A stretch of DNA of 40,563 bases. Source: a virus. Position 1 is the first letter of the stretch. Every line of letters begins with the position of its first letter. The position numbers were made by a program, and so were the translations under genes. Location of the stretch: the IMG/VR virus record IMGVR_UViG_3300006738_000023, positions 1 to 40,563 of that record; one strand, given 5' to 3'. Shown in pieces: positions 1 to 40,563 of the stretch. The notes under the pieces were generated by a model that did not search any database, was not told the origin of the DNA, and worked only from the letters and a program-made list of their open reading frames with translations.

Positions 1-63
1 CGCCGCTGCCGCGCCAGCAGCTGCGCTGCCAGCAAAGCCGGTATACGTGCCGGTGGCAGCAGC
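1..63. repeat. 63-bp exact terminal overlap with 40501..40563 (circular assembly overlap)
   Basis: Bases 1-63 are identical to 40501-40563. The overlap lies in frame inside a single minus-strand ORF, so it is an assembly closure artefact and not a biological terminal repeat. Unique molecule is 40,500 bp. Confidence 0.9.
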
Positions 64-3000
64 AGCACCAAAGCCGCTTGCATAACCAATCGGTGCGGCG
101 GCTGAGGCACCAAAGCCCAACGCACTACCAATGCCGCCAATGGCATCGCCCACGTAGGGCAGCTTTTTAGCGCCGTTGTATAGCGAGCTAATGCCGTTAA
201 GGTTGAAGCCACCACCAGCGCCCCCTTGGCCACCCACCCCCGGAATACCCAGCGCGCCGCCCATCTGCTGCGTGAACTCCACGACGATGGGCTTTAGGGT
301 GGCTTGGTAGGCCAGCTCGGCTAGCAGGCGCTTAAAGCCGTCTAGCAGCTGGTCGGTAAAATCATCGAACGAATCGAACGCGCCAGCGAAGGCGTCGGCA
401 AAGGTTTCATCAATGCGGTTGCTGGCCTCTTCCCATGCCCGCGCCATTTCCTGCGCTGCCGGGTCGGCATCGATCGCTAGCTGCTGCATTTCTTCGCGCA
501 CCGCGCCCATCATGCGGGTGTACTTGTTACCGTCAATTTCACCGGCCTGGTACAAGTCGTTAATCTGAGCAATGGCGGCGGTTAGCTGCTCCGCTTTCTG
601 CCGATGGCTGTCGTACTTGCCCACCAGGGCGGCGGTCTGCTTTTCGTACTCTTCGGCACCCGTGGCGGCGCGCTGGTACTGCTCAGCGCTCCAGCGCACC
701 GCTTCGCCATAGGCTTCTTCGCTAATGGTGCCTTCGGCCAAGGCGCGATCCAGCACCGCTAGGCGCTCGATGTATTCCGCATGGTCAGCCAGTAGTGGGT
801 CCATCTCCTGCTGAACGCCTACCAGGGCTTTGGCTTGGGCCTCTGCTGACTGCTGGGCGGCCTGGGCTTGGCGTTGCGCGGTGCGCTCGGCCTCCTCGGC
901 AGCGCGGCGTGCCTCTGCGGCGGCTTCCTGCTGGGCTTTGCGCTGGTCTTTCAGCGCTTCATCCTGCACCGACAGAAACACGCTATAGCCGCGCATGATG
1001 TTGTTCACATCATCGCCCATGCCATCTAGGGCGCGGTTGGCCGCGCCCATGGCTGAGCCGCCGTCTCGGGTCGCGGCGATGCTTTCGCGCAAGCGGTCGT
1101 TGTACTTGGCCCACGCGTCCAAGGTGGTGGCTGAGGGTGCGCCACCGTTGACGGCTTGGCCGCTATTCTCGGCACCTTGAGCCACATCGTTAAACGCTGT
1201 TTCAAGCGTTTGCAGCAGCCCGCCCAGCTCTTCTACCGTTACGCTGCCTTCGCTGTACTCTGCCGCCCACAAGCGAATTTGACGCATAGCACTATCAGGA
1301 ATGCTCAGCTGGTCCTGCAAGCCGTTCAGCATTTCATCTAGGCTTTGCGCGCCGCTCTCTACCGCCTCAAATCCGGCGTTCACTTCATCAAAAAACGCCC
1401 GCGCTTCGGCACCGCTGGCATCCTCAAAGCCGATGCTTAACACCTCTTCGCGGATTTTAGACAGCGCGCTCCGGGCTTTTTCGACTTCCTCTTGGTAGCG
1501 GTCGCCCCACTTGATCATTGCCGCTCGTTGGCTTTCAACGCTCAGCTCTTTGAAGTCCGCAATCACGCTTTCAAGCGGCGCGTTCATATCGGTTAGCGAG
1601 CTGCTAACGTCGTCGCTGCTATCGCGGAACAGGAAAAACGCCGAAGCGGCCAAAGTAGCCACGCCAAGGGGACCGCCCACTAACGCCATCGCGCCAGCAG
1701 CACCACGGCTTACCGCCGTTAGCGTTCGCTGGGCAGCCGTGTTCGCGGCCACCGCTGCCGTGTTGGCTGTCGCGGCGGCAGTGGTGGCGGTGGTGGCCCG
1801 CGCCAGATCCACCTTAGCAGCGGATAGCGTGCGGGCACTGGCGGCGCTTTGCACTTCGGCAGCGTTCAAGGCGCGCTGGGCAGCGGCAGACTGGGTAGTT
1901 AACGCCATTTCAGTACGGCGAATTTCCGCTAACCGCGTGAGCGATTGCTGCCGCCCGGTCGCGCTAATCTGTGCTTGCAGGCGCTGGGTTTCCAGCACGC
2001 GCTCTGCGGCCATTTGCTGCTGTGTGAGCTGGATAGAGCGCAGCTGAGAAGCAGCCTCAACCTGCGCGGCCTGCGCACGCTGTGCCGCATTCGCGGCGCT
2101 ATTCAATGCCGCGACGCGCTCCGCTTCTGCACGGCGGGCCGTGGCCAACGCCGCCCCGGTTTCACGCTCAGCGGTAATACCTGCTTGAATGGCTACGGCT
2201 CTATCAGCTTGGGCCTTTTTAACGGCGGCTACTGACGCCGCGCCAAGCGCGCCTACCATGCGTCCTGCAAGCGTACCGCTTAACAGAAGCGTAAAATCAG
2301 TAACGTTGTCTACTACCTCGCCCATACCGCCTAGTGTTTGGGTGAGGTCTTTTGCAACATCTGCAACAAAAATAATGCCGGGCGCCCACTCAGAAGCCAC
2401 CGCATTAGCAAAAGCAGTGCCCAGCGCCGTCAGCTCATTAAGCGCTTGCGATGCTCGCTCTATGCTGTCAACGTCGCTTTGAGGCAGGGCAACGCCCAGC
2501 TGATCGGCAAGGGAGATTTGATCCCGTAGCGCGGCGGCGTTGTTTTCTAACAGCGGCAGCAGGCGGCTAGCGTCGTTGGCCAACGACTCCATGAAAAAGA
2601 TTTTTTCGCCCTGGGTGGCCACCCCGTCGAGCGCTTCGCCAATGGCGATCAACTGCTGATCGGGGCGCATCGCCATCAGCGTATTGATATCGAGGTTCAG
2701 ACGCTCGAAAAGGTCGGCAGCCTCACCACCGCCGGTCGATACAAAATCACCAATCTTCTCGCTGGTGTCTTTGAAAATATCGCCCATCTTGCCAGCGCCA
2801 AGATTGACACTTTGAGCGGCAAACTCCCATTGCTGCAACGTTTGAACGCTAACACCCACCGAACGCGCCAGCGCGGCCTGTTCAGCCACAACACGGGTCT
2901 GAGCTACTGCCATCGTACCCATAGCAACGGTAACGGCAGCGCTAACGGTAGCCAGCCTACGCGCATACACGCTAACACTTTCAAAGCTGGATGCTGTTTC

Positions 3001-3132
3001 CTCGCTTTGACGCTGGGCGCGCTGCATTTCACGGGCCATATCCGCGTTGGCTTCTTGCAGCTCACGGGTGGCCTTTACGCCGCTAGAACTGTCGCCCTTA
3101 ATGACAAACTCAGTGGTATATTGCTTTGACGA
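1..3132 (-). CDS. Tail tape-measure protein, N-terminal 1044 codons (continues across the circular junction into 37594..40500)
   Basis: Absent from the supplied ORF track because it runs off the left edge. ATG at 3132..3130 with GAGGT 9 nt upstream. Manual translation gave no stop down to base 1 (MSSKQYTTEFVIKGDSS...FKDTSEKIGDFVSTGGGEAADLFERLNL..., Ala/Gln-rich coiled coil, then a Gly-rich hydrophobic segment). Lowest codon coordinates are 1 mod 3 on both sides of the junction, so the frame is continuous. Confidence 0.85.
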
Positions 3133-3161
3133 CATAGCGGTTTACCTCAAATTTCAGGCAT

Positions 3162-3218: not shown

Positions 3219-3581
3219 CTATCTATCATACGGTGCGCAGAAGGCGTCCCATGCCTCTTGAAAGCCCGGTGTTTCGCCTTCCAAGCCTACAACGTCACCG
3301 CCTCCGCTAACGTACCTCTTAAAACCTGTATAGCCACCAAAGGTGTTTTTGGAGTTTACCTCTCCGCAACCAATGGCATTCCCGTTAGACTGGCCGGGAA
3401 AAAACCCTCTAAATTCTGCTGAGTCAGGGTCTTTCAAAACTCCTCTAACAGACTGCTCTACCAATGATTTAACCTCAAAATAACGATTACCTGCAGAAGG
3501 CTTAGCATCATCGTCATCGGTGATACACCCCTTAATCGTCATTATGAAAACCACCAGTAGGATTAACCCTAATACCTGCAT
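3219..3581 (-). CDS. Moron: secreted lipoprotein (superinfection-exclusion candidate)
   Basis: Signal peptide plus lipobox (MQVLGLILLVVFIMTIKGC). Strong SD (AAGGAGG) 6 nt upstream. G+C visibly lower than flanks. Contains LKDPDSAEF and GEVNSKNTFGGYTGF motifs typical of small bacterial lipoproteins. Inserted between the GT chaperone and the tape measure. Confidence 0.7.
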   Translation of the reverse strand: MQVLGLILLVVFIMTIKGCITDDDDAKPSAGNRYFEVKSLVEQSVRGVLKDPDSAEFRGFFPGQSNGNAIGCGEVNSKNTFGGYTGFKRYVSGGGDVVGLEGETPGFQEAWDAFCAPYDR

Positions 3582-3726: not shown

Positions 3727-4095
3727 TTAATTTTTACCGATACTCTCGGTTCTGCTTACTTGCTCTTCTATACGCCTTTGCTTTTCTGACTCTTTTTCCT
3801 CTCGCCTTCTCTTTTGATCAGCATTCGCCTTTTCTATCTGGCGGTGTATATCATTGTCGCTATAGCTCGCACGCCTACTGTGGCTTGAATTAAAAACGGA
3901 CAACCAAACACCAAATGCAGCAATGGCGATTGCTGCTGCAAATCCTCCCATGACCGTTGGCCAGCCATAGATGCCCGCCGCCACAAACAACAGAATACAG
4001 GCAAAAAAACCTGAAATGACTTTCATCACTCCAGGCAGTAGCCCGGTGGCATACAGCAGCACCACCAAGATTAGAAACAGCAGCAACACCACCAT
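3727..4095 (-). CDS. Moron: small membrane protein (about 3 TM segments plus a charged C-terminal coil)
   Basis: 122-aa ORF. Hydrophobic N-terminal 70 aa, then a Lys/Arg/Glu-rich tail (QKRRREEKESEKQRRIEEQ). Low G+C. Bounded by the 57/58-bp direct repeats. Confidence 0.65.
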   Translation of the reverse strand: MVVLLLFLILVVLLYATGLLPGVMKVISGFFACILLFVAAGIYGWPTVMGGFAAAIAIAAFGVWLSVFNSSHSRRASYSDNDIHRQIEKANADQKRRREEKESEKQRRIEEQVSRTESIGKN

Positions 4096-4172: not shown

Positions 4173-4852
4173 TCACCGCCGCATCACCTCAAGCGCCCCC
4201 GCCTCGATATGCTGGATTTTGCGCAGCGTGCCACGCATATCGTCCACACCCAGCATGCGCAGGGTGCTTTCTAGCTGGGTGCGTTCGATGCCCATGGGCA
4301 CGGGCTTGCCCATGGGTGGGGTCAGGTAGCGCCACTGGCTGGCACAATCGCGGAATACATCAAACGCGGTGGCGTTACCCGGCCATATCACGATGCGTTC
4401 AGGCGTTTTATAACGCTCGGGGATGGTGATGCCCCAAGCGTCTACGTCGCTTTTCAGCTCGTTTTTCGTACCACCTTGAGCGCCCGCCCAAGCGCGCCCA
4501 AGGTCGTTTAGTTTTTTGCGGTTAACTCCGGCATGCCCTGCTGCACTTGGTTCCAGGCGCGCACGCAGCCCATCAGTACATAGGGGTCTTTCAGCAGCTT
4601 CTCTTTCAGCTCGTCGGTAACGTCCATCGGCTTGCCGTTTTTGTCGGCAAAGCCGCTAAGGCTTACTACGTCCTCTTTCACGTGGTCGAAGCCTTTAGCT
4701 TCGCCGCTCTGCTGCTTTTGATGCAGGGCGTCTTGCTCGTCTAAATCGCGAACGCGAATTTCTGCGGTGAACTCTTCCTCTTCGCGGCCTGGGCGCTTAA
4801 TGGCAACGGTTTTAAATACAGTGGCAAGGCCAATCACAAATGCTGCAGCCAT
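4173..4852 (-). CDS. Tail assembly chaperone frameshift product (gpGT-like), -1 shift at 4511..4517
   Basis: After a -1 slip on A-AAA-AAC, the reading frame is open for 112 more codons (KLNDLGRAWAGAQGGTKNELKSDVDAWGITIPERYKTPERIVIWPGNATAF...EVMRR*). It runs into the 4173..4391 ORF listed in the track. Confidence 0.75.
4175..4232 (-). repeat. Intact copy of the repeated T 3' end (partner of 3647..3703)
   Basis: Encodes the last 19 codons of the T frame. See 3647..3703. Confidence 0.8.
4508..4852 (-). CDS. Tail assembly chaperone (lambda gpG-like)
   Basis: 114-aa acidic ORF located between the tail tube and tape-measure genes. Ends ...ACC GCA AAA AAC TAA, which contains a slippery heptamer. 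Confidence 0.75.
   Translation of the reverse strand: MAAAFVIGLATVFKTVAIKRPGREEEEFTAEIRVRDLDEQDALHQKQQSGEAKGFDHVKEDVVSLSGFADKNGKPMDVTDELKEKLLKDPYVLMGCVRAWNQVQQGMPELTAKN
4511..4517 (-). promoter_or_regulatory. Programmed -1 ribosomal frameshift slippery heptamer A-AAA-AAC
   Basis: Plus strand gtttttt equals minus strand A AAA AAC in the X-XXY-YYZ phase of the G frame, 1 codon before the G stop. Confidence 0.75.
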
Positions 4853-8984: not shown

Positions 8985-10136
8985 TTACGCCTTGGCTGGC
9001 TTGCGGTTAAAACGGGCGTAGGCGTTGGCATAGTTAACGTTCGCCTGTTTCGCTTGCCCGCCTTCGGGGGAGTGGCTGTTGTGAATGTGCTGGCCTTCGC
9101 CGTGGGCGGCGGCAACGTCGAACACGTAGCCGGCGGCCTGATCGGTATCCATGCCGTTGCTAATCAGCTTTTCCATTAGCTGGGGTTGGCCGGTGGTCTG
9201 GCAGGCTTTGATGATGCTGTTCACGCGGGTACGCTCGGCGGCTACCGCTTCTTGAACAGAGTTATCAATCTGAATTTTCCCCGGCCCCATCGCCTTGATC
9301 TCATCAAGTAGGGCTTGCGGCACATCTTCGATTTTGGCGATTGGCGTAGAGGCTTGCTGCCGTAGCGCGATAATCTGATCACCTAAATCAGCGGCTTGGG
9401 CTTCGGCCTCTTCGGGGGTTAAATCAAACGCTAGGGCGAGGGCATCGGCGGCGCTCATGGTGGTTTGCTGCCCGGCTAGCTGGGCACGCAGGTTAATCAG
9501 CTCGCCATGCTCTTCTAGCTGCTTTTTGAACTTGGACATATCAGCACAGGCCACCGCCTGCAGTTGGGCATCTTTAGCGGTGGCAATGCCCCACGCCAGC
9601 GCCTCATCCGCGCCCATTACCGTGTCGCCCTGATCCAGCAAGCCGTTAATCTCTTCGGCGGTCTTGCCGGTCACCCCTACGAACACATCAACGATGGCAT
9701 CATCAAATTTCGTGAGGTTGGCGGCGGTTTCCTGCATTTCCTTGGCGTTGTAGAAACCCACCATCAGCGAGCTGGCCCGGTGGGTCATTACCGTGGTGCC
9801 CACGCCCATGGTGCGGGTATCACCCGCCATCATGATCGTTACCGCGATACTGGCCGCCATGCCGGTTACTTTGGTGTGCACCTTGGCCCGGTGATTTTTG
9901 AGGTAGTTGTAAATGCGAACGCCGCTGGCCACATCGCCGCCAGGGCAATTCAGCTCTACATGGATCTCGTCTAGCTCGCCAAGCGCATCAATCGCGGCGA
10001 TTAACTCACGGGCGGGCTTTTCGCCGGTAAAATCGCTAATCCAATCCGGTGCCCAATCCGAGCCAATCGGGTTATCAATAGCGATATGTGCAATACGCGG
10101 ATTTTCCGCCATTGCTTGAGCTGTAAACCAAGGCAT
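8985..10136 (-). CDS. Prohead protease (ClpP/S49-like) fused to a C-terminal scaffold domain (gpC/Nu3 arrangement)
   Basis: INCPGGDVASGVRIYNYL...TGMAASIAVTIMMAGD...MTHRAS matches the ClpP-type core (INSPGG...GxAAS...H). The C-terminal 180 aa is helical and acidic, like a scaffold. Confidence 0.8.
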   Translation of the reverse strand: MPWFTAQAMAENPRIAHIAIDNPIGSDWAPDWISDFTGEKPARELIAAIDALGELDEIHVELNCPGGDVASGVRIYNYLKNHRAKVHTKVTGMAASIAVTIMMAGDTRTMGVGTTVMTHRASSLMVGFYNAKEMQETAANLTKFDDAIVDVFVGVTGKTAEEINGLLDQGDTVMGADEALAWGIATAKDAQLQAVACADMSKFKKQLEEHGELINLRAQLAGQQTTMSAADALALAFDLTPEEAEAQAADLGDQIIALRQQASTPIAKIEDVPQALLDEIKAMGPGKIQIDNSVQEAVAAERTRVNSIIKACQTTGQPQLMEKLISNGMDTDQAAGYVFDVAAAHGEGQHIHNSHSPEGGQAKQANVNYANAYARFNRKPAKA

Positions 10137-10138
10137 GG

Positions 10139-11635
10139 TTAGTCGTCCTCGTTATCTTCGTCGGTGGTGGCCAGGGCTTCAAGGGCTTTTTGAAGCGCCC
10201 CGTTTTTGGCGGTAATGCGCGGGTCTGAATCCAGCGCCAGCCCGTGTTGGTCGGCGCTTCGGTTGCCCTTGGCAATCTCGGCATCCAGCAGGTCGAGCGA
10301 CCAGCCGCGCTCTCCGGCTTTCTCGCTGCGTGGGGCAAAACCGGCGCGCACTTCCAGTAGGTCGGCGCTGACTTCTTTCAGCGGGTCCACCCAGCTCCAC
10401 TTCGGCGCAATCCAGTCGATGGCCAGCAGCTCTTTACGCCGCTGCCAGTAACCGGGAATGAGTAGCGCCCCGCTGGTCACGGCCACATCTAGCCATTTAG
10501 CCGCCACGCGGCGGCACCACTGGTGAACCATCAGCGAGGCTTGCAGCATTTCAGCCCGGCGGCGGAACTCTAAAAGCCCGGCCCGTATTGAGCTGTAGTT
10601 GACGCCTTTTAGGTCGCCGGTCATCTGCTCGTAGGTCAGGCCAGCGCCCGCGCCCACCGCTAACAGCTCGGTACGCAGCCACTCGGTGTATTGCCCTTGA
10701 ATATCGGGCGGCGTTGAGAACGTGACCTCTTCGTCATCTTCCAGGTAGTGGACGCCGCCGGGGGTGAACTCTTCAAAGCGGTCAACTTCACCGGGCACTT
10801 TCACAAGCTCGCCAAACGATGGGCCCTCCTCTTCGGGGTCTTGGTTTGTCTTACGTTTGACAAACGCGCCGAACAGCTGCGCCAGCTTTTGCCGGGCTAG
10901 CGTGGCGTCCTGCATTTCGTCAATTTCGTACAGCCGCACGATAACGCTGGTTAGCTCAGGCACCCCGCGCAGCTGGCCGGGCCGGGTCCGGCGGTACATG
11001 TGAATAACGTTATCCGCTGGCACCGGCACCCGTTCGTTATACGCGGCGGTGAGCTGTTCGTTGGGGTGATAGCGCCATAGGTGGTAAGCGGTACGCTGGC
11101 CGATGCCGTTAAACTCGATGCCCATCTTGATCAAGCGGCCATCAAAGCCACGTGAGTAGGCAGAGTCGAGGTGCTCCGATTCCACTACCTGCAGCTGCAG
11201 GGGTACGCTTAGGCCGTCGCTTGTGCGCCGGTAACGAAAGCGCCCTAGCACCTCCCCGGCTTCAAACTGTGCGCCAGCGGCTAACGCCTGTTGGCCGTAG
11301 AAATTGTCTACGCCGTCCGCGTCGCTTTCCTCTACCCACTGATCCCAAAGCGCCTGTATGACCGGGTTGCCCCACTGGGGCTTAATGCCGGTGCCCACTA
11401 GGTTGGAGACGTATTTCTCTTTGGCACTGGCGGCGTAGGCGTTGTTTCTAATGGCGTAGTGGCTGCGCGCCTGCAGGATGGGCAGCGAGTTTTCAATAGG
11501 CCCGTTGGGGCCGGTAACCATCGTTCCTTTGCCTGCCATACGGCGGCGGGTGCTGCCGCCCTCGTAGTAGGCGCGCACAGGCACTTGCCGCCCATCCCGC
11601 ACGGTCATACGGATTCGGGGCTTATTGGCGATCAT
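10139..11635 (-). CDS. Portal protein, lambda gpB family
   Basis: 498-aa ORF between gpW-like and protease genes. Acidic C-terminus (TTDEDNEDD). Confidence 0.8.
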   Translation of the reverse strand: MIANKPRIRMTVRDGRQVPVRAYYEGGSTRRRMAGKGTMVTGPNGPIENSLPILQARSHYAIRNNAYAASAKEKYVSNLVGTGIKPQWGNPVIQALWDQWVEESDADGVDNFYGQQALAAGAQFEAGEVLGRFRYRRTSDGLSVPLQLQVVESEHLDSAYSRGFDGRLIKMGIEFNGIGQRTAYHLWRYHPNEQLTAAYNERVPVPADNVIHMYRRTRPGQLRGVPELTSVIVRLYEIDEMQDATLARQKLAQLFGAFVKRKTNQDPEEEGPSFGELVKVPGEVDRFEEFTPGGVHYLEDDEEVTFSTPPDIQGQYTEWLRTELLAVGAGAGLTYEQMTGDLKGVNYSSIRAGLLEFRRRAEMLQASLMVHQWCRRVAAKWLDVAVTSGALLIPGYWQRRKELLAIDWIAPKWSWVDPLKEVSADLLEVRAGFAPRSEKAGERGWSLDLLDAEIAKGNRSADQHGLALDSDPRITAKNGALQKALEALATTDEDNEDD

Positions 11636-11875: not shown

Positions 11876-13957
11876 CTAAATTCGGGGCTTAACAACGCGA
11901 CGGCGGCGGCGCGCTTGAGGCGCGGGTTGTGCCTGGGGTGGTGGTTGGCTTGCCTCGCTGCCCGTGGTGGGCGCGCTTAGCAGCAGGTTGGCATCCCAGT
12001 GGTCGGCCCACGTGGGCGGGGCTTGCCAGTTGATCTTCTCGCCCCCCAACAGAATGAAAATGGCGAGGTTGTAAACGAACAGGTCGAACGCTTCGTTTGG
12101 CTTACTGCCAGGGCGCGCCCATTTGCCGGTGGCGGGGTCGCGTACTTCGTAGGTCAGCTCATCAAACCACCACATGCCTAGCCAATCAGGGGTGTGCATG
12201 TAGCCCGCGCCGGGCTGTTCGCGGTCGATCATCGCCGCTACGGTGTCTTTCAGCAGGTCGGTGCCCAGTAGGTACAACGGCACATCGCCCCGCGCCCCAC
12301 TGCTGCGGCTTTTGCGCTTGGTGTTGTCAGGCTCGGTTTTACGGATGCGGCTGTTGGTTTTGCTACTGCCACCTTTCAACAGGTACACGCGGCCTTGCAG
12401 CCCATCGCCCCCGGCTCTTAACCGGCGGTGATATTCGTACGCCTGCGAGGTCACGCTTTCGGTGCCTTTACCCTCCCCACCGGTATCCACGCCCATAGCG
12501 AGAATCGGCATACGCCGCCCGCTACCATCGCCTAGCTTGTAGGTGCGCTTTAGCACGTCGCGGGTCAGCAAGTCCCAATCTTCGGGCTGCGTCATGGGGT
12601 TAATCTGCCGGGGTGGCTGGTCACCCTCGGGACCGCGATCCTCTTTGATGTTGAAGCGATCCACTAGCCACGTTTCGCGGTTCGGCCCCCAGCCATGCAC
12701 CTGCACCACAAACCGGCGGTTTTTGCCGCCCTGCACGTCTACCGCTGCCGTGAGGAAACGCACCCCGTGGGGCACGGTGCGATGCTGGTAGGCTTCACCC
12801 CGGTCTTTCAGGCGCTGGCCTGAGCGCTTCTCCCCCGGCGTGCGGTTCACGTAAGGGCGGCCCCAGTCAACGTTGGTGACTGACTGCAAATCCTTTTGGT
12901 TGCCGGTGGCTTGGAATGTCTCTTCGGCAGCGCGTAGCTTGCTTACCAGCGATTGCCATGTTTGATCCGATGCCGCCGGGCCTTCCATCCAGAAGGACGC
13001 AATGCGCGTTTCACGCGGGGTGCCTATCAGCTCACCCTCTAACGTCAGCTCGCAGCCTTCGGGCACCCAGCGGCCACGCTCGTTTAACTCGCGTTTAACT
13101 CGCTGGTCTACCTCAGCGCCACAGTGCGGGCAAAACACACACCCGCTTTCCATGCTGAAATTCTCTTGAATCGGCTGAAACCAGCGGCGGCAGGCGCTCT
13201 CTGGGCACTGCCAGTACAAGCGGCGGCGGTCGCCTTGGTTGTAGAGATCCAGTATCCCAGTCGTAGGCGGTGACCGGTGGGGCTCGCCTTCGGGCTGCTG
13301 CCAATCGGCATCTAACACGGGCCTGCCGGGGGAACTCTCCACCAGCGTCATGCCGGTACTACCAAACGTTTGGGTACGCTTGCTAGCCAGTACCCAGCCG
13401 GAACCCTCACCGCCTACGTTTTCCGTCATGCGGTCGTAGTCGGTCAGTAGCACAAACTGGTAGTCAGACGATGCAAAGACGTTCTTTGACGGGTGCTTAA
13501 TCGCCAGCATGTTGCCAGCGCGAAAAATGATGTCGTGAACGTTGTTATCGTGGCCACGCGGGCTTAACCGCTTGGCAATTTCGGGCGAGGCGTTGAAGCT
13601 ACGGCGCAAGCGTTTTTTGCTGTACTCCGCTGCTTTGGCCTCGGTAATTTGTACTACCAGCCCATCACCGGGGTCGTTAATGATCTTGTAGCAAATGAAG
13701 CCATCAACTAAGCCGATGGTTTTACCTGTTCGCGCCGGGCCTACAAAAATCACCGCGTCGTATTTGCGGGAACCCATGCAGTCCATGGGCTCAATCATGT
13801 AGGGGGTTTTGTCGGGCTTCCAAAGCGTCTTAGTGCCGTTGCCGTGTACGACATACATCGACTCGGCCACCGCTTCGCTCACGCGCACCCGGCGCGGCGG
13901 GCGTAACAGCGTGGCTATGTCATGGCGAATGGCGGCAGCGTTAGCGGTGTTAGCCAT
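11876..13957 (-). CDS. Terminase large subunit, GpA family
   Basis: 693 aa. Walker A-like GPARTGKT. Internal zinc ribbon (CPESACRRW...CPHCGAEV) typical of GpA-type terminases. Overlaps terS by 8 nt. Confidence 0.85.
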   Translation of the reverse strand: MANTANAAAIRHDIATLLRPPRRVRVSEAVAESMYVVHGNGTKTLWKPDKTPYMIEPMDCMGSRKYDAVIFVGPARTGKTIGLVDGFICYKIINDPGDGLVVQITEAKAAEYSKKRLRRSFNASPEIAKRLSPRGHDNNVHDIIFRAGNMLAIKHPSKNVFASSDYQFVLLTDYDRMTENVGGEGSGWVLASKRTQTFGSTGMTLVESSPGRPVLDADWQQPEGEPHRSPPTTGILDLYNQGDRRRLYWQCPESACRRWFQPIQENFSMESGCVFCPHCGAEVDQRVKRELNERGRWVPEGCELTLEGELIGTPRETRIASFWMEGPAASDQTWQSLVSKLRAAEETFQATGNQKDLQSVTNVDWGRPYVNRTPGEKRSGQRLKDRGEAYQHRTVPHGVRFLTAAVDVQGGKNRRFVVQVHGWGPNRETWLVDRFNIKEDRGPEGDQPPRQINPMTQPEDWDLLTRDVLKRTYKLGDGSGRRMPILAMGVDTGGEGKGTESVTSQAYEYHRRLRAGGDGLQGRVYLLKGGSSKTNSRIRKTEPDNTKRKSRSSGARGDVPLYLLGTDLLKDTVAAMIDREQPGAGYMHTPDWLGMWWFDELTYEVRDPATGKWARPGSKPNEAFDLFVYNLAIFILLGGEKINWQAPPTWADHWDANLLLSAPTTGSEASQPPPQAQPAPQARRRRRVVKPRI

Positions 13958-14450
13958 TGTCTGGGCTCTCCATATCCGCTGTTGCCGCTTGGTACATCTG
14001 CTCGCGTAACGCGTCGATCACGTGCTGCACGCGTTCGATGGCGTCAGGGTCTAGCCCGGCGTCACGCTCCAACGCATCGGGCAATGAATCCAAGCCCGCC
14101 GCTACCGTCTTAGCTAGGGTGCTTAACTCGCGGGCAAACTCATGCGCCGGTATCAGCTGCTTTATGGCCACCTCAAATTTAAGGCGCTCGTTTTCCGACT
14201 GATACCAAGCCTTTCGCGCATCGGGGAACTGGTCTAAATCTAACCCGCCCGCGATAGGCGTCTTTTCACCGAACAGCGCCGGGCCAACATCTGAAAGCGC
14301 GTAGGTGGGGTTACCGCGACGCGTGCCAGAGGGCATGACGCCATGCTCTTGCAGCCGCTTAGCCACGGTGCGGCGGTCTAATCCAAACGCTTGGCCAATC
14401 CTGCTAACCGACCAGTTATAGGCATCTTTGCTCTCTATCACTTCACCCAT
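13950..14450 (-). CDS. Terminase small subunit, Nu1-like
   Basis: The N-terminal winged HTH (SVSRIGQAFGLDRRTVAKRLQEHGVMP...GNPTYALSDV) parallels lambda Nu1 (NKKQLADIFGASIRTIQNWQEQGMPV...GNEVLYDSAAV). Confidence 0.75.
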   Translation of the reverse strand: MGEVIESKDAYNWSVSRIGQAFGLDRRTVAKRLQEHGVMPSGTRRGNPTYALSDVGPALFGEKTPIAGGLDLDQFPDARKAWYQSENERLKFEVAIKQLIPAHEFARELSTLAKTVAAGLDSLPDALERDAGLDPDAIERVQHVIDALREQMYQAATADMESPDNG

Positions 14451-16240: not shown

Positions 16241-17509
16241 TTACCCCGCCGCCCCTTGCCACCACTGGGGCCGGTCGCTGTTGTGATAAAACGACGATCT
16301 TGGTTCTGTCTCGGTCAGAAACACGCTAAAACCACGCTCACACAGCCATTTATGCCAGCGCTCCAACGCGTCGAGAATCTGCCGCTCTGCGTAGGTGTGA
16401 ATGTAAGTACGATCTAGTTTTGTTAGGGCGTGATTTAACAGCAGCTCACCGGCTAGATACTCGACCCCGAGGTCAGCCCATGTAGTCCTGGCGAGCTTAC
16501 GCAGATCGTGAGAATGCCACCGCGCACCGCTGGCACTCACCACCAGATCAAACACAGCTGAACGGGATAACGGCTTACCCTTCGATGCACCAGGAAACAG
16601 ATACACGCCCCGGTAACCGTTCGCCTGCTGATATGCTCGGTAACGGGTCAACAGCGTGACAGCCATGGGCGTTAACGGCAGGCGGTGTTGTCGTTTGGAT
16701 TTTGTATTGTCGGTGGGGATAGTCCACGTGCGCGCGTCGAGATCGAACTGCCCCCACTTGGCTAGCCGCGTCTCACTGATACGGGTGCCGAACAGCAGCA
16801 TCAATAACAGCAGAAAACACCCCGGCGGCTCGCACGAACGCAGGGCGCGTATCACCTCGGGCACATCGGCAGCGGTCAGCGCACCCGCTTTAGCTGGGGT
16901 TTTCGCGTCGATGAAGTCGCCCACATTCACCCCGGCGAACGGGTCAGCATCCAACAGGTTCAGCTTACGGGCTTGCTTGAACGCGGCCTTGATCACCCCA
17001 AAAATCAGGCGCACATAGGCCACGGAATAATGCTCCTGTAGCGGCCACACCAACCCGCTATCGATAGACGCGGGCGTAATGCCCGCCAGCGGCTGGCCAC
17101 CGAACAGGGGCAATAGGTGCCGATTCACGGCGGTTTTGATCGATGATTTTCGAGTAGCGGATAACCGGCCATGGGATGCCGAACGGTCACGATACCAACA
17201 CAGCAGGTCGGCCACGGTTTCCCACGCATCGACGCCCACCGGCCCGGCAGGGTCAAGCGCCAGCTTGGCTTGAATCTCCGGCAAGCGCGCCAGCAAAGCG
17301 CGGGTGGTCAGCTCCGGGTAATTGCCCACCCGGTGCCAGTGGTCACGCCCACCGGCATAGCGCACCACGTACCAGCTCGCCCGCTCACGGCACGCATGAA
17401 AACGCACCCGCACCGGGTAGCGCGGGTCGCGTAACTGAGTAATCGAAGGGTCTTGTATGTGACGCTTGATAGCCGCGTCAGAGAGAGTAACCGCGAGGGT
17501 TTTGGGCAT
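16241..17509 (-). CDS. int: Tyrosine integrase, P4-like
   Basis: 422 aa. Catalytic signature: GTRISE (Arg), HDLRK (His-x-x-Arg), LLNH, and RTYIHTY (Tyr). N-terminal arm-binding-like domain. Confidence 0.9.
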   Translation of the reverse strand: MPKTLAVTLSDAAIKRHIQDPSITQLRDPRYPVRVRFHACRERASWYVVRYAGGRDHWHRVGNYPELTTRALLARLPEIQAKLALDPAGPVGVDAWETVADLLCWYRDRSASHGRLSATRKSSIKTAVNRHLLPLFGGQPLAGITPASIDSGLVWPLQEHYSVAYVRLIFGVIKAAFKQARKLNLLDADPFAGVNVGDFIDAKTPAKAGALTAADVPEVIRALRSCEPPGCFLLLLMLLFGTRISETRLAKWGQFDLDARTWTIPTDNTKSKRQHRLPLTPMAVTLLTRYRAYQQANGYRGVYLFPGASKGKPLSRSAVFDLVVSASGARWHSHDLRKLARTTWADLGVEYLAGELLLNHALTKLDRTYIHTYAERQILDALERWHKWLCERGFSVFLTETEPRSSFYHNSDRPQWWQGAAG

Positions 17510-36121: not shown

Positions 36122-37597
36122 TTAACCCCATAGTGTGAGTGATACCCGGTTGCGCGACGCGTCCACTTCGCGCCCCACCACCAGCAGGTTGCGTCCGGCG
36201 GTGTACCCTAGCCGGGGTGTAACCACGCGAACTGTTTGTTGAATCTGCAAACCGCCTGCATCCACCACGCGGGCGACCACCGTTAGCCGGTCGCGCCGGG
36301 GGGATAGCAGCGCTAACACATCGTTGGCCGTGGTTTGGGCGTGGCTGCGGCTAGCAAGGTCGCTGGCCACCGTCACGGCATCTGCCAACGGGTGCCGTGC
36401 AAGCGTGGCAGCTGAGACGGCCACCGCATCGCGGTAGGCGTTGGCCAGCCGGGCGCGGCGGGATTCCGTCACCGCCCCGGCAAGGTCGGCTTGAACGGTT
36501 TCGATACGGTCGGCTTGCCATGTCACGCGACCCACCGGCAAGCCGTTACTGCCCGCCCCTGCTGAGTCTCGGTCGATAGTGATAATTTGGTGATCGTTGA
36601 GCGTGAGAACAGCCGCACCGGGCGGCATTAACAGCCCGGCTACCAGCGTTTGGCCGCCGGTAATGCGGTAGAACCCCGCACACGACGCAATCAAACGATC
36701 TAACAGCGCGGCGGTGGTGGTTTCTTCCGTCAGCCATAGCCGCACCGCGCCCCGACTATTGAGCGCCCCGGCACTCTCCAGCGTTACCCCGGCCTCACTG
36801 GCAACTTGCGCCACCACATCACCCGCGTTCACCGCCGGGGCGTTGGCGTCACACGTGAGCTGGCCAGTGGGGGCCACCCCCACGCGGATATACCCCTGAT
36901 AACGCCGCCACTTGCCGCGTGGTGGTTCCCAATCGCTCCATTCACCCGTGGCCGGGGCCACGCTTTGCAGCTCGGTTAGCGAGGCGTAATCACCGTCATA
37001 CGTTAGCGGTATGCCGTTGTCGTATACCGCCGTGACGGTGCAGGGCTGGTCGCTCACTTGGTAAATCAGCGTTGACGTATTCACCGCTACGGGCTGGGCA
37101 TTGCGCACCTGCCCGTAAACGCGGGGCTTGATGTTGCCGCCTATATCGTCGTCGGTGCCCTCTACACCGTTGGGTGCTACGTTGGTGCCCGCATAGCGGG
37201 CTTGGGGGTGGGGCTGCTGCAGGATCTCCACCGGGTCGCGCAGCTTGATCGACACCAGCGCATTGCTAAACGACACGCGGGCCACGGTGCCCTCTAACAC
37301 CGTGGTAAGGCCGCTGGCATCGGCATATTGCAGCGTGGCTTGACGGCCATCGGTGGCGTAGTCCACCAGCCAATCTAGCCCGCCGTCGATGTTGATAAGC
37401 GTGGTTTCGCCGTAGCCGCTGCGGTCGACGTTGATTAGCTCCCCCGCAAACAAACCAGCCCGGTATAAACCGGGCTGCTTGATGCGTGGCATCCATGCCA
37501 CGGGGGCCGGGTCCATGTACCCCGGCGTGCTAAATCGCAGCGTTTCGGCGTTTCCTTCGCTATCGAGCGCTTCGACCGTTAACAACCAATAGCTCAT
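36122..37597 (-). CDS. Distal tail / tail tip protein
   Basis: 491-aa ORF with ATGA overlap to the tape-measure stop. N-terminus MSYWLLTVEALDSEGNAETLRFSTPGY. Confidence 0.5.
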   Translation of the reverse strand: MSYWLLTVEALDSEGNAETLRFSTPGYMDPAPVAWMPRIKQPGLYRAGLFAGELINVDRSGYGETTLINIDGGLDWLVDYATDGRQATLQYADASGLTTVLEGTVARVSFSNALVSIKLRDPVEILQQPHPQARYAGTNVAPNGVEGTDDDIGGNIKPRVYGQVRNAQPVAVNTSTLIYQVSDQPCTVTAVYDNGIPLTYDGDYASLTELQSVAPATGEWSDWEPPRGKWRRYQGYIRVGVAPTGQLTCDANAPAVNAGDVVAQVASEAGVTLESAGALNSRGAVRLWLTEETTTAALLDRLIASCAGFYRITGGQTLVAGLLMPPGAAVLTLNDHQIITIDRDSAGAGSNGLPVGRVTWQADRIETVQADLAGAVTESRRARLANAYRDAVAVSAATLARHPLADAVTVASDLASRSHAQTTANDVLALLSPRRDRLTVVARVVDAGGLQIQQTVRVVTPRLGYTAGRNLLVVGREVDASRNRVSLTLWG

Positions 37598-40563
37598 CGT
37601 GACGCCTCCAGGCGCGCGGCTGCACTCATATCATCAAGCGCGGCATTGCTCTTTTTCAGCTCGCTAATTTGCTGCTTGGCCGCTTCCTGCTGAACGGCCA
37701 CCCCCGCCGCGCCGTGCTGCTCAATTCTCTTGAGTAGCGCGGTTAGCTCTTTACGAAGGGTTTTGTTTTCGTTCAGCAGGTCGCGCACTACATCGTGCTG
37801 ATCGTTGCGGTTGAGTAGCGGGTAGTTGGGCAGTGCAGGCATGGGCAGCTCACGGCTCGGCAACTCGCGCAACCGGCCTGCCGTTTGCGCGGGCACGACC
37901 ATTTCATCCCGGTGAAGCTCTGCGATGTAGTTATCAAACGGCACGTTCCAAAGCCCTGTCGCGTGGCTGCCGTTCACAAAAAACGAATTAGGCGAGTATT
38001 GGTGGCCAGCCACCTCTTTCTCCCAATCCCCAATTTGGGACTCTCGAAGCATCGTCGCCGCCCGGTGCAGGATGTAGTCCCGCGCATCACTCGACAGGTT
38101 TTGATTATTTAGAACGTTGCCTCTAATGCGCTGCCAGTCCTCTTGATCCATAGCCCCCGTAGAGCCCTGGGCCGCATTGTTTGTGACAAACCGGTCATAC
38201 ACCGCTTGCTGCTGAGCGCTGAGTTGATCACTTGCACGGGCGATAATGCCTGCGCTTCTTTCGATCTCGCTCATCATCCATTGGGCACTCGACTGCCGAG
38301 CGCTGAAGTATTGCAGCTGGGCAATTTCGTCCTGTGTTTCCTTCATCCTTCTCAGCGTGCCGTCGAGAGACACAATGCTTTGATTTAATGTCACAAACTG
38401 GCCGGTCGAACGGGTCATTTCCGAGACTAACCCGCCCAGCTCTTGCAGCTGATCACGGGCGCGCTCTTCCAGATTTTGCGTGTTGCCCTCAGTGCCTTGG
38501 CTGCTACGGTTCAGCGCCTCCAAGCGGCTAATGGTGCCGCTGCCGTCTTCATCCAGCTGCTTGAAGATACGGCGCAACTCGGCATCACTGGCCAGCCCTT
38601 GAAACGCGCCGTAAAACTCGCCCCAATCAATCAGGCCGCTTGCGTCTAAGTCGATGCTGTCGAACATCGGTTTGAGGGTTGAGCCGATGCCGCTAGCCAG
38701 CCCGTTCAGCCGTAGGTTTGCTAGCTCCTGCTGAGTGATGATGCCGTCGCCGTTGGCGTCTACCTCACGAATGAGGCGGCTAATTTCGGCATCGGTGGCG
38801 TGAGGTGCCAAGGCGCTACGCACCTGGGCGGCTGTCAGCTGGTTAGCATCCAGGCGGGTCAGCTCGCGGCTTAGCTCTACCGCTAGCCGTTCGTCGGTAG
38901 GCATCGCTGAAATAACCACCGACTGCAGCGCGTCGCGGATCTCTTGCGCCAGATACTCCTCTGCCGTTATCTGATCGGGCAAATCTTTCAACGCGTCTAA
39001 CACATCGCCTTGAATGCGCTGGAACGCGCCACCACTGGCGTACATTGCTTCCCCGGCAGCCAGGTATTGCTCTGCGTACTGGGTAATGCTCTGTAGCGCG
39101 TTGCGGTCGCCTGATTGGGCAAGCACCAGCTGCCGGGCGAACTGGTCGCCTGCTTCGGTCAGGTTCATGCCGGGGGTGCCAGCGGTCGCGCTTTGCTGGT
39201 CTACCCACTGGCTAATGCCGTTAAACGTGCTGCTGAGCTGGTCGTTCACCTGGGCGAGCGAACGGGCATACTCCTGCCCAGCCCGCGTGGCCGCTTGCTG
39301 CGCGGCGGCTTCGTCCTCCATGGCCCAAATGCGGCGCTGGGTTTCCTGTAGCAGCGGGTCGATGCCTTGCAGCTCTCGCTCACGCTGCAGGGCCAACGCA
39401 GCTTGCTCGTCGCCCATCAGGCCCAAGAGCTGTAGCTGCTGGTCGAATGACTGCTTTTCAAACGCGGCGTAGGCGTTACGCACCTCGTTTTCTAGCGTGC
39501 TGATCTCGCCGTTTAGCTGGCTGAGGCGGTCAGCAAACACATCAACGCCGTTGCCAGTTTGCTCAAGCAGGGTTTGCAACCGGTCGAACGGGCCCGCTAG
39601 CTGCAGCAGCTGCACATAGTTACGCTGACCCGACTCGGTTAAGCGGTTTTGCTGCTCCACCAGCTGCCGGAAACCCTCATTGGTAGACGGCAGCGCTAGG
39701 CCCATGGCACGCAGGCTAGCGGCAACGTCCTGCTGTAAATCAGCGGCGCGCTCGGCATCGCTGAAAAACGCCGTGTAATAGCTGTTCTGCAAGCTGGCGA
39801 GCTGATCCACGCCGCCAGCCATCTGCGCGATGCTATCAGCGGCGCGCAATGCGCCAGCGGCTGAGGCGTCAAACTGCAGGTTGAGGCGGTCGCTACTGGC
39901 ATCTAACAACTGCATGGCGTTAGCTGCCTGCACCACACGACCGGTCAACTGTTCGGCATCCAGCCCTAGCCCGCGTAGGGAAGCGGAAAAATCACCATCT
40001 AACACATCGACCACGGCAAGCGTGCGAGTAGCAAGCTGGTTCGCGATCCCGGCGGCATCGCCTGCGTTTAAACGCACAGCCTGGGCGGCGCTGGCCATGG
40101 CCTGCGTTTTCTCTGCGCCGTTGTCTAGGTTGGCGACCGCCCCCACCATGGCGTTATCTAGCGCGGTGATGCCGTCTAAAAACGCCTTGGCGTTATCAAA
40201 GCCGTCGAAGGTTTCTTCTAAGCGGGCCGTGTTAGGGTCATAAAACCCTACGGTGCCCAGCGCCCCACGGCTGTAAACACCCTCCCCGTAGTTTTCAAAC
40301 AGGCCGCGACGCCCTGGGTCTACGTCCTGACCTACGGTGGCTAGCTCGAATTTAGGGGCGGTTTTGCCGCCACCAAACAGGCTGCTAATACCCTTAACGA
40401 TGCCGTCAGTAATGCCCAGACCTAGCACGTTATCGACCAGCAACGCGCCACCTACCCACGGCATGGCGGCGCTGGCGGCACCCATCAGGCCACCACCGCC
40501 CGCCGCTGCCGCGCCAGCAGCTGCGCTGCCAGCAAAGCCGGTATACGTGCCGGTGGCAGCAGC
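37594..40563 (-). CDS. Tail tape-measure protein, C-terminal part (968 codons to 40500; 40501..40563 duplicates 1..63)
   Basis: The track ORF starts at Met 40485, but the frame stays open upstream (GGC GGT GGT GGC CTG ATG) and joins 1..3132. The C-terminal motif NGSHATGLWNVPFDNYIAELHRDEMVVP is typical of tape measures. Combined length is 6039 nt, or 2012 aa. Confidence 0.85.
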   Translation of the reverse strand, partial: AAATGTYTGFAGSAAAGAAAAGGGGLMGAASAAMPWVGGALLVDNVLGLGITDGIVKGISSLFGGGKTAPKFELATVGQDVDPGRRGLFENYGEGVYSRGALGTVGFYDPNTARLEETFDGFDNAKAFLDGITALDNAMVGAVANLDNGAEKTQAMASAAQAVRLNAGDAAGIANQLATRTLAVVDVLDGDFSASLRGLGLDAEQLTGRVVQAANAMQLLDASSDRLNLQFDASAAGALRAADSIAQMAGGVDQLASLQNSYYTAFFSDAERAADLQQDVAASLRAMGLALPSTNEGFRQLVEQQNRLTESGQRNYVQLLQLAGPFDRLQTLLEQTGNGVDVFADRLSQLNGEISTLENEVRNAYAAFEKQSFDQQLQLLGLMGDEQAALALQRERELQGIDPLLQETQRRIWAMEDEAAAQQAATRAGQEYARSLAQVNDQLSSTFNGISQWVDQQSATAGTPGMNLTEAGDQFARQLVLAQSGDRNALQSITQYAEQYLAAGEAMYASGGAFQRIQGDVLDALKDLPDQITAEEYLAQEIRDALQSVVISAMPTDERLAVELSRELTRLDANQLTAAQVRSALAPHATDAEISRLIREVDANGDGIITQQELANLRLNGLASGIGSTLKPMFDSIDLDASGLIDWGEFYGAFQGLASDAELRRIFKQLDEDGSGTISRLEALNRSSQGTEGNTQNLEERARDQLQELGGLVSEMTRSTGQFVTLNQSIVSLDGTLRRMKETQDEIAQLQYFSARQSSAQWMMSEIERSAGIIARASDQLSAQQQAVYDRFVTNNAAQGSTGAMDQEDWQRIRGNVLNNQNLSSDARDYILHRAATMLRESQIGDWEKEVAGHQYSPNSFFVNGSHATGLWNVPFDNYIAELHRDEMVVPAQTAGRLRELPSRELPMPALPNYPLLNRNDQHDVVRDLLNENKTLRKELTALLKRIEQHGAAGVAVQQEAAKQQISELKKSNAALDDMSAAARLEASR
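40501..40563. repeat. Second copy of the 63-bp assembly overlap
   Basis: Identical to 1..63. Confidence 0.9.

Follow-up and report, generated by a model that had tools for sequence, protein, structure and literature searches.

What is a set of putative calcium-binding loops doing near the end of a phage tape measure protein (TMP)? TMPs are known for carrying muralytic inserts, and the initial annotation of this locus drew attention to three EF-hand loops within one of them. We analysed the window, i.e. the whole 40,563-nt stretch of DNA, which consists of a circular 40,500-bp temperate siphovirus genome plus a 63-bp end overlap. The listed 963-aa ORF that holds the loops, whose frame is open as far as the window end, is only the C-terminal half of the TMP, because the circular-genome junction splits the gene; past the junction it continues into window 3135..1, giving a full-length TMP of 2013 aa. 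The gene and its surroundings are laid out as follows:

1..3135, minus strand: TMP gene, N-terminal part (full-length residues 1-1045; ATG at 3135)
37594..40500, minus strand: TMP gene, C-terminal part (full-length residues 1046-2013, stop included)
40501..40563, no strand: terminal overlap of 63 bp, identical in sequence to window 1..63
40411..40500, minus strand: second part of a Gly/Ala-rich and hydrophobic TMP stretch (residues 1046-1075), the first part being window 1..138
4173..4852, minus strand: tail assembly chaperone genes (4508-4852 and 4173-4391), upstream of the TMP, from profile matches
36122..37597, minus strand: first tail-tip gene (491 aa), downstream of the TMP (phrog_8917, 1e-61)

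We ruled out an assembly artefact as the origin of the junction-spanning TMP, as the homologue P0005 runs straight across the junction and contains the overlap peptide just once, and the homologues P0077 and P0063 are collinear with the window TMP across its entire length (P0063 with 66% identity over residues 1-968).

That the EF-hand protein is a TMP, as initially annotated, was borne out by PHROG matches, by the domains of its homologues and by its position after the chaperones. Its N-terminal part matches 11 PHROG 'tail length tape measure protein' families (best phrog_2854, 6e-47), and its C-terminal part also matches PHROG TMP families (1.6e-12). A Pfam scan of the N-terminal 1045 aa returned no family and no TMP domain, so that it was PHROGs that identified this part; the homologues carry Pfam TMP_3, TMP_2 or PhageMin_Tail domains. 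On the circular map the gene order runs terminase, portal, protease, capsid, tube, chaperones, TMP and tail-tip genes, with the TMP being the longest gene and lying between the chaperones and the tail-tip genes, a synteny kept in related loci. The first chaperone ORF has a weak Phage_TAC_4 match together with phrog_569, and the second matches DUF1799 (2.6e-10). The start of the 491-aa tail-tip gene overlaps the TMP stop codon, and this gene is syntenic with the TMP in most of the related loci that have EF-hands.

Within this protein, the three canonical EF loops were found exactly where the initial annotation had placed them, on the minus strand and with all consensus positions occupied, and their start-to-start spacing of 36 and 33 residues and their flanking sequences were likewise as first described. 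The original count of three hands needs to be extended, since a fourth, degenerate hand lies upstream of the canonical three and brings the total to four:

38824..38859, minus strand: degenerate first EF loop, TRLDANQLTAAQ, predicted by AlphaFold2 as helix-loop-strand-helix
38725..38760, minus strand: EF loop 1, DANGDGIITQQE, canonical (from residue 576 of the 963-aa ORF, 1626 full-length)
38617..38652, minus strand: EF loop 2, DLDASGLIDWGE, canonical (from residue 612 of the 963-aa ORF, 1662 full-length)
38518..38553, minus strand: EF loop 3, DEDGSGTISRLE, canonical (from residue 645 of the 963-aa ORF, 1695 full-length)
38497..38898, minus strand: predicted four-EF-hand (calmodulin-like) module of ~135-150 residues (residues ~1580-1713), from AlphaFold2, Foldseek and a PDB profile search

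Loops 1-3 show throughout the features by which we defined an EF loop, namely oxygen ligands at positions 1, 3, 5, 9 and 12, a glycine at position 6 and a hydrophobic side chain at position 8, and the upstream degenerate loop departs from them. This loop, TRLDANQLTAAQ, is unlikely to bind Ca2+; the window's subclade has a 6-residue deletion here, and more distant homologues have a canonical loop at the same position, for example DGNLDGLLTFDE. Under the strict PROSITE pattern PS00018, loops 1 and 2 match and loop 3 fails at the extra 13th position alone (Ala), with no further matches in the six frames of the window. Shuffling the full protein 20,000 times produced at least two PS00018 matches with a frequency of 1.5e-4.

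The initial annotation had proposed profile searches and structure prediction as checks, and both came out in favour of EF-hands. Five Pfam models of the EF_hand clan (PF00036, PF13499, PF13202, PF13405 and PF13833) exceeded their curated cut-offs on the 963-aa ORF: EF-hand_1 with 49.5 bits over three stretches (cut-off 25.4), EF-hand_7 with 47.5 (30), EF-hand_5 with 43.8 (25.9), EF-hand_6 with 43.5 (25) and EF-hand_8 with 34.7 (28). The five models again passed on a 154-aa segment, where EF-hand_7 reached 61 bits (cut-off 30), and a PDB sequence-profile search with the module gave E = 1.8e-12, with calmodulin, centrin and troponin C at the top. AlphaFold2, run on an alignment of 30 sequences, predicted four helix-loop-helix motifs with helices flanking the loops, at moderate confidence (pLDDT 72.7; helices at segment residues 10-24, 32-39, 45-55, 65-91, 101-108, 114-124 and 134-143). 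In two runs all four hands had entering and exiting helices, and the short strands predicted in every hand sit at loop positions 7-9, where a beta bridge would pair the hands.

Searching the PDB with this model by Foldseek, we obtained 193 matches at E <= 1e-3, of which the top ones were all four-hand proteins, with calmodulin, centrin and troponin C the best; the topology agrees over ~140/150 residues (rmsd 7-14 A, the first hand being degenerate). The module shares with these proteins the 12-residue loop chemistry, a predicted beta bridge at 7-9 and a predicted arrangement of four hands in ~140 residues, but it differs from them in being embedded in a 2013-aa virion protein and in its degenerate first hand. 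Sequence identity is ~20-25%, and global TM-scores reach just 0.34-0.42, because the relative placement of the two lobes is unmatched. Among viral predicted structures (BFVD), Foldseek found none at E <= 1e-3, and the weak matches were giant-virus EF-hand proteins, not phage TMPs.

Three more specific identities were considered and dropped. Dockerin type I (PF00404), which also calls for a duplicated 22-residue F-hand segment, scored 12.5 bits on the segment (threshold 22.9; E = 0.17), none of its stretches passing alone, and a SPARC calcium-binding identity was at E = 0.023. The type III effector family XopAW (NF041410), though the best NCBIfam match, stayed far below its cut-off of 120 bits with a score of 40.9, and we read the match as generic EF-hand similarity; XopAW is alike in being an EF-hand protein that passes a needle-like conduit, but the window protein is not a member. 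We have hardly any doubt that what lies here is a modular, predicted calcium-binding four-EF-hand unit in one copy (three hands canonical and one decayed), set into a siphovirus TMP of 2013 aa ~300 residues before its C-terminus and downstream of a Gly-rich hydrophobic stretch. A composition and Kyte-Doolittle scan delimits the latter, with G+A of at least 60% across TMP residues 1000-1074 and hydrophobic windows at 1049-1075, and the EF module lies C-terminal of it.

EF-hand TMPs, sought by exhaustive HMM search among other means, were found in Halomonadaceae prophages, IMG/VR contigs, Methylobacterium/Methylorubrum and EBPR siphovirus 2; the hosts span Gamma- and Alphaproteobacteria, an activated-sludge phage joins them, and the close relatives are all from Halomonadaceae. 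We had considered a link to halophilic, high-calcium habitats and dropped it, since Methylobacterium/Methylorubrum and the activated-sludge phage also have EF-hand TMPs; leaf and sludge bacteria are among the hosts besides halophiles. About 60 top HMM matches without TMP homology were set aside, the seven scanned with Pfam being generic EF-hand repeat proteins, some of them eukaryote-like. A word-indexed protein search with a 180-aa segment gave a single match, a 138-aa fragment in a decayed Halomonas elongata prophage, and the 50,697 GenBank phage records contained no megablast match to one half of the window. In the same 50,697 records, three EF-hand TMP queries found one match alone, the metagenomic EBPR siphovirus 2 gp77 (JF412297, 'similar to tail protein'). 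This protein has a homologous EF-hand pair, including loop 2, at the same place in a TMP C-terminal fragment; it differs in having two hands, and it comes from a partial metagenome-assembled record whose misc_feature annotation makes no mention of EF-hands. The feature has escaped phage biology since none of the three queries matched an isolated phage in GenBank.

The suggestion that EF-hands in TMPs were new held for the literature searched, but the feature is widespread among prophages and metagenomic sequences, and databases annotate it automatically. Full-text searches returned no description of EF-hands in TMPs, nor did we find in the literature any description of a metal-sensing or metal-folding TMP insert. 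In the paper on phage TP-84, EF-hands were sought in the structural proteins and none were found. The sole phage protein with a described EF-hand-like Ca2+ site in the literature searched is the staphylococcal phage lysin LysGH15 (CHAP domain; PMC4022735), where it is a single EF-hand-like loop in an endolysin enzyme domain, neither a virion tail protein nor a canonical paired array.

Whether homologues retain the loops, another of the checks first proposed, has a divided answer: the Ca2+-ligand columns are conserved in 30 diverged modules, but some close homologues lack the module or have it in degenerate form. Only D1 and E12 of the three loops and one Ala are invariant across these 30 modules (29-83% identity), with N3, D5 and G6 of loop 1 and G6 and I8 of loop 3 conserved in at least 90%. 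Column entropy was 0.48 bits at ligand positions vs 1.8-1.9 bits elsewhere (Mann-Whitney p = 7e-6). Using a pattern that allows D or E at position 12, we collected 463 loops from 85 TMP clusters, and 99% of them have E there. Judged from these alignments, the predicted Ca2+-ligand positions are under selection.

The architecture around the loops combines a constant position with a variable copy number. EF loops, 2-35 in number, are found in at least 85 diverse TMP clusters, and the hands recur in TMPs that have three different, unrelated N-terminal TMP domains. The distance from the last loop to the C-terminus has a median of 294 residues (IQR 243-341) in 101 full-length EF-hand TMPs of 1400-3300 aa. 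Loop count ranges from 2 to 14 in relatives and up to 35 in more distant TMPs, and each extra loop adds ~39 residues of TMP length without compensation (slope 39, r = 0.63, p = 4e-4, n = 27). Among the type strains whose prophages were counted, Vreelandella nanhaiensis JCM 18142 has 2 loops, V. andesensis DSM 19434 has 3, Halomonas halocynthiae DSM 14573 has 7, H. caseinilytica JCM 14802 has 10 and H. eurihalina DSM 5720 has 14. Near-identical TMPs differ by whole EF pairs, as in L014, which has a 78-aa pair more. Two close homologues (P0009 and P0029) keep a degenerate module remnant only, and two others (P0005 and P0007) have another C-terminal half, with DUF4214; the module is therefore an accessory one, dispensable for basic TMP function.

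The closest precedents are the C-terminal metallopeptidase of T5 pb2 and the motif 3/Rpf-like motifs of TM4 gp17, which are likewise non-essential sequences of globular-domain type, distal in a long helical TMP (PMC10038345, PMC1796659), and which share with the EF module a place in the part that reaches the envelope first, and gain or loss among relatives. Those domains, however, are peptidoglycan hydrolases, whereas the EF module has no catalytic motif and appears from its sequence to be a metal-binding-type helix-loop-helix array that can expand in tandem (2-35 hands).

How might such an array act? We tentatively prefer, as a quite possible mechanism, a Ca2+-driven refolding in the periplasm of the TMP segment that is ejected first. 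The tail would be assembled in the cytoplasm with its hands empty and pliable, because free Ca2+ is sub-micromolar there, and the empty segment would be packed into the narrow tail lumen, stretched and metastable like the remaining TMP. During infection the TMP would leave with its C-terminus ahead and enter the periplasm, a compartment far richer in Ca2+, and the hands would there load Ca2+ and collapse to compact pairs. Such compaction could make the exit irreversible, as a folding ratchet, and/or provide a stiffer part of the TMP for building a periplasm-spanning conduit. Hand copy number (2 to 35 in relatives) would tune the effect, with TMP length changing as a side effect.

Besides the ligand conservation, the fixed address and the recurrence described above, several published findings speak for this mechanism. 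The TMP C-terminus is located in the tail tip according to the literature, and lambda gpH* builds a periplasmic channel (PMC12617516). When an enzymatic motif of 114 aa is deleted from the TMP of TM4, the tail becomes ~20 nm shorter (PMC1796659), and embedded domains therefore count as extended length. RTX proteins are ratcheted out of type I secretion ducts by Ca2+-driven C-to-N folding (PMC6891781). The RTX beta-roll is an analogy of working only, having in common Ca2+-binding tandem repeats, C-terminus-first passage from low to high Ca2+ and a folding ratchet (PMC6891781); its nonapeptide repeats have a wholly different fold from the helix-loop-helix of the module, with no homology.

Several points speak against the refolding model. 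The structure prediction is of moderate confidence and its TM-scores to calmodulin are low, some close homologues have just a remnant of the module or another C-terminal half, and the range of hosts gives no habitat link to high calcium. Ions may enter the tail lumen, so that the hands could be Ca-loaded already in the virion, and a spacer role fits the copy-number variation equally well. If folded and Ca-loaded in the lumen, EF units could serve as a structural spacer or brace, i.e. as length-setting or stabilising beads, with selection on their number acting through tail length or environmental virion stability rather than through ejection. We regard this as somewhat unlikely, although the uncompensated growth of the TMP by ~39 residues per added loop, the whole EF pairs by which near-identical TMPs differ (the 78-aa pair of L014) and the span of loop numbers (2-14 in relatives, up to 35 in distant TMPs) are all what it would predict, and tandem repeats are a known route of TMP length change (Belcaid et al. 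2011, as cited in PMC7296036). A pure spacer has no need of Ca2+ ligands, which is at odds with the invariance of positions 1 and 12; the TM4 result suggests that embedded domains are extended within the tube; and the lumen is narrow (3-4 nm in the lambda trans-envelope channel) in a tube that holds three or six TMP copies, which therefore leaves little room for side-by-side folded EF pairs.

Another candidate is a calmodulin-like sensor or effector, in which Ca2+ loading would bare hydrophobic clefts that clamp a target helix, whether in the TMP or tail tip, as in the Ca2+-gated trigger that the initial annotation put forward, or, once delivered, in a protein of the host envelope or cytoplasm. 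Calmodulin, centrin and troponin C, which match the module best in structure, are indeed four-hand sensors with target helices to bind, the module keeps a constant place ~300 residues before the tip end, and the best NCBIfam match is an EF-hand effector family of type III secretion, although its 40.9 bits fall far below the cut-off of 120. In addition, a meeting report found ~42% of screened P. aeruginosa phages to be Ca2+-dependent, and these had more Ca-binding domains (PMC12908700). However, no candidate target emerged, some close relatives are without the module, and large tandem expansions (10-35 hands) are atypical of a specific sensor, which together make this reading quite improbable. 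Finally, whole-unit indels between close relatives, the decayed first hand of the window and the decayed remnants in P0009 and P0029 could point to a functionless cassette that was gained by recombination and spreads by repeat expansion in a tolerant TMP region. We consider such a neutral passenger very improbable, since ligand positions are strongly conserved in modules down to 29% identity, the module recurs with three unrelated TMP N-terminal domains, and its distance to the C-terminus is constant.

Taken to its full extent, the refolding mechanism would make EF-hand arrays in TMPs a calcium-powered refolding device, stored stretched and empty, loaded with Ca2+ at the periplasm, and using its folding energy both to ratchet the TMP out and to assemble a trans-periplasmic DNA conduit. 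This bolder proposal is speculative and, in our estimate, unlikely. If true, it would be a previously unrecognised molecular basis on which a broad class of siphoviruses depends on calcium for DNA entry, with a logic convergent with that of RTX/type I secretion.

To our knowledge, many phages require calcium for infection, with the step and the protein responsible mostly unknown. The TMP opens the way for DNA, and a canonical, conserved EF-hand array placed at a constant interval from its tip end offers a concrete, mutable handle on this requirement, and it is a testable one, as prophages of culturable type strains (Vreelandella, Halomonas, Salinicola and Methylobacterium) have EF-hand TMPs. 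EF-hand arrays also bear on how a TMP is stored in a metastable state and refolds after ejection, and they indicate that TMP length, and probably tail length too, can shift in EF-hand steps of ~35 aa.

Re-examination of the window places a canonical EF-hand array in its tape measure protein (TMP). The three loop peptides of the initial annotation were recovered at exactly its coordinates on the minus strand, and the loop spacing of 36 and 33 residues and the flanking sequences that it quoted were reproduced in the minus-strand translation. The features discussed here are:

38725-38760, minus strand: EF loop 1, DANGDGIITQQE, canonical
38617-38652, minus strand: EF loop 2, DLDASGLIDWGE, canonical
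38518-38553, minus strand: EF loop 3, DEDGSGTISRLE, canonical
38824-38859, minus strand: degenerate first EF unit, TRLDANQLTAAQ, ligands lost
ATG at 3135 to 1, then 40500 to 37594, minus strand: full TMP gene, across the joined ends

All five Pfam EF-hand models scored above their curated cut-offs on the listed 963-residue ORF (49.5 bits versus 25.4 for EF-hand_1; 47.5 versus 30 for EF-hand_7), and scores were higher still on an isolated 154-residue segment. Loops 1 and 2 match the strict PROSITE pattern PS00018 and are its sole matches across the six frames of the 40.5-kb window, while loop 3 fails solely at the extra 13th position. Two or more such matches arose at a frequency of 1.5e-4 in 20,000 shuffles of the protein, and the presence of EF-hand loops well beyond chance expectation is confirmed.

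We compared 30 modules sharing 29-83% identity with that of the window, and found that the invariant columns were Asp at position 1 and Glu at position 12 of the three loops, together with a single Ala. At least 90% conservation was seen at N3, D5 and G6 of loop 1 and at G6 and I8 of loop 3. Column entropy was 0.48 bits at ligand positions versus 1.8-1.9 bits elsewhere in the loops and helices (p = 7e-6). The distal third of the TMP holds a canonical EF-hand array whose predicted calcium ligands are under purifying selection.

Structure prediction with AlphaFold2 gave a low-confidence model from a 9-sequence alignment (pLDDT 59.6) and a better one from 30 sequences (pLDDT 72.7, pTM 0.54). Both contain four helix-loop-helix units, one for every hand, each with a three-residue strand at loop positions 7-9 that corresponds to the beta bridge typical of EF-hands. 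The first unit has a canonical loop in more distant homologues and a 6-residue deletion in the window's subclade. A Foldseek search of the PDB gave 193 matches at E <= 1e-3. Four-hand proteins (calmodulin, centrin, troponin C and CML18) took all the top ranks, with alignments covering about 140 of 150 residues; their TM-scores were low (0.34-0.42), indicating that the relative arrangement of the lobes is either not matched or not well predicted. At the sequence level, the module profile matches calmodulins and the calmodulin-like domains of CDPKs (1e-12 to 1e-9). The identity of the module as an EF-hand array is near certain. Dockerin, SPARC and the XopAW effector family, considered as alternative identities, each fell under their thresholds.

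Positions 1-63 of the window are identical to 40501-40563 (63 bp), and no stop codon interrupts the reading frame between the listed ATG (40485) and the window end. Joining the ends yields a 40,500-bp circle with a single uninterrupted ORF of 2013 residues, which places the first residues of the loops at 1626, 1662 and 1695. The join is real, since the homologue P0005 reads continuously across the junction with the overlap peptide in one copy, two others (P0077 and P0063) align collinearly along both TMP halves, and PHROG TMP families match both parts: eleven 'tail length tape measure protein' families in the N-terminal 1045 residues (best 6e-47) and three further families in the C-terminal part. 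The window is therefore a circularly closed phage genome cut inside the TMP gene, so that ORF lists give half of it. The initial assignment of the loop-bearing protein as a TMP holds, but the gene reaches beyond the ORF listed for it.

The circular map runs integrase, small and large terminase, portal, protease, major capsid, neck, tube, chaperones, TMP and tail-tip genes, an order typical of a temperate lambda-like siphovirus. The tyrosine integrase gene (16241-17509, minus), which marks the phage as temperate, lies just upstream of the small terminase gene (13950-14450, minus) on the same strand. Two chaperone-like ORFs (4508-4852, weak match to Phage_TAC_4, and 4173-4391, DUF1799; both minus) lie about 115 bases apart without overlap, so the customary layout for a G/GT programmed frameshift is not obvious. 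Between these and the TMP start are two small ORFs (3219-3581 and 3727-4095, both minus), one with a lipoprotein-like signal MQVLGLILLVVFIMTIKGC and a match to phrog_2320 of unknown function, the other with a charged tail and membrane helices by prediction. Being found in few related loci, they look like morons, in a position reminiscent of the HK97 gp15 superinfection-exclusion gene. Within the TMP, a mid-protein stretch (residues 1000-1075; window 1-138 and 40411-40500, minus) is rich in Gly and Ala (G+A at least 60%) and includes hydrophobic windows; at the sequence level it resembles the Gly-rich or hydrophobic regions beside cleavage sites in lambda gpH and T5 pb2. A second membrane-like segment (residues 478-504) lies N-terminal of it, and the EF-hand module lies C-terminal.

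EF units have been gained and lost among relatives. One IMG/VR contig (L014) has near-identical flanks and, directly upstream, a further EF pair of 78 residues, absent from the window and from a third locus (L015), and two homologues (P0009 and P0029) retain a decayed remnant alone within the same conserved flanks. Loop numbers in relatives range from 2 to 14, the pattern of 66/36/33-residue spacing occurring one to three times, and TMPs lengthen by about 39 residues with each loop (r = 0.63, p = 4e-4). In P0005 and P0007, which are near-identical to the window TMP through the Gly-rich region, the C-terminal halves differ and bear a DUF4214 domain in place of EF-hands, so this TMP family is mosaic in its C-terminal third.

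An initial homology search gave 52 TMP homologues, 7 with precomputed EF-hand Pfam hits and others with DUF4214 or nothing in the EF region. Searching 1.84 billion cluster representatives exhaustively with a module-profile HMM gave 138 hits at E <= 1e-30, and 85 of 145 new top representatives showed homology to the window TMP outside the EF region. These 85 EF-hand TMPs are 1500-3300 residues long with 2 to 35 loops. The arrays are coupled to three different N-terminal TMP domains (TMP_3, TMP_2 and PhageMin_Tail), and named examples include a Methylobacterium protein, described below, and Methylorubrum proteins. All seven Pfam-scanned top hits lacking TMP homology were generic EF-hand repeat proteins. 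Close module relatives occur at 21 places on 20 IMG/VR viral contigs and in 11 species genomes, Halomonadaceae without exception, so the host is probably a Halomonas-like bacterium. In Halomonas elongata (CP142770.1; positions 9155-10945 of locus L002), a decayed prophage remnant near smpB holds short ORFs that are EF-hand TMP fragments (251 and 138 residues, and others) beside a HicB antitoxin gene. Three different EF-hand-TMP queries of 50,697 GenBank phage records found nothing beyond metagenomic EBPR siphovirus 2, in which an unannotated fragment, listed as 'similar to tail protein', carries a pair of EF-hands in the same position.

The last loop keeps a fixed address across 101 full-length proteins: the distance from its end to the C-terminus has a median of 294 residues (IQR 243-341), despite a more than two-fold variation in total length. 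In T5, the TMP C-terminus lies in the tip, and within the lumen the protein is metastable; it is expelled first into the periplasm, where it may need refolding (PMC10038345). Lambda gpH* builds a periplasm-spanning channel (PMC12617516). In TM4 a 114-residue enzymatic TMP motif accounts for about 20 nm of tail length, as it would in an extended form (PMC1796659), and in RTX proteins Ca2+-driven C-to-N folding acts as a ratchet out of type I ducts (PMC6891781). We tentatively favor a model in which the hands would be empty and pliable during cytoplasmic assembly and would bind Ca2+ no earlier than emergence of the segment, their folding making exit irreversible and/or stiffening the conduit.

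A folded, Ca-stabilized spacer setting tail length or virion stability seems somewhat unlikely. A calmodulin-like sensor or effector clamping a target, which takes in the calcium-dependent trigger initially proposed, is a rather improbable reading. That the module is a neutral passenger we regard as very improbable.

Both EF-hands and TMP inserts are familiar on their own. The initial annotation knew of no EF-hand TMPs, and full-text searching across 8 million papers and preprints turned up no account of them, the nearest published item being an EF-hand-like site in the lysin LysGH15; databases nevertheless auto-annotate the combination, as an 'EF-hand domain-containing protein' (Vreelandella venusta) or, by NCBI, as a 'tape measure protein' (WP_232629166.1, Methylobacterium sp. 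Leaf118). The latter (P0054; 3318 residues, TMP_3 domain) has the largest array among the TMPs found here, 35 loops, spaced 36 and 41 residues apart, in 77-residue repeats. The EF-hand module in TMPs is real, widespread and experimentally testable, and the P0054 array, if extended in the tail, would imply an unusually long tail.
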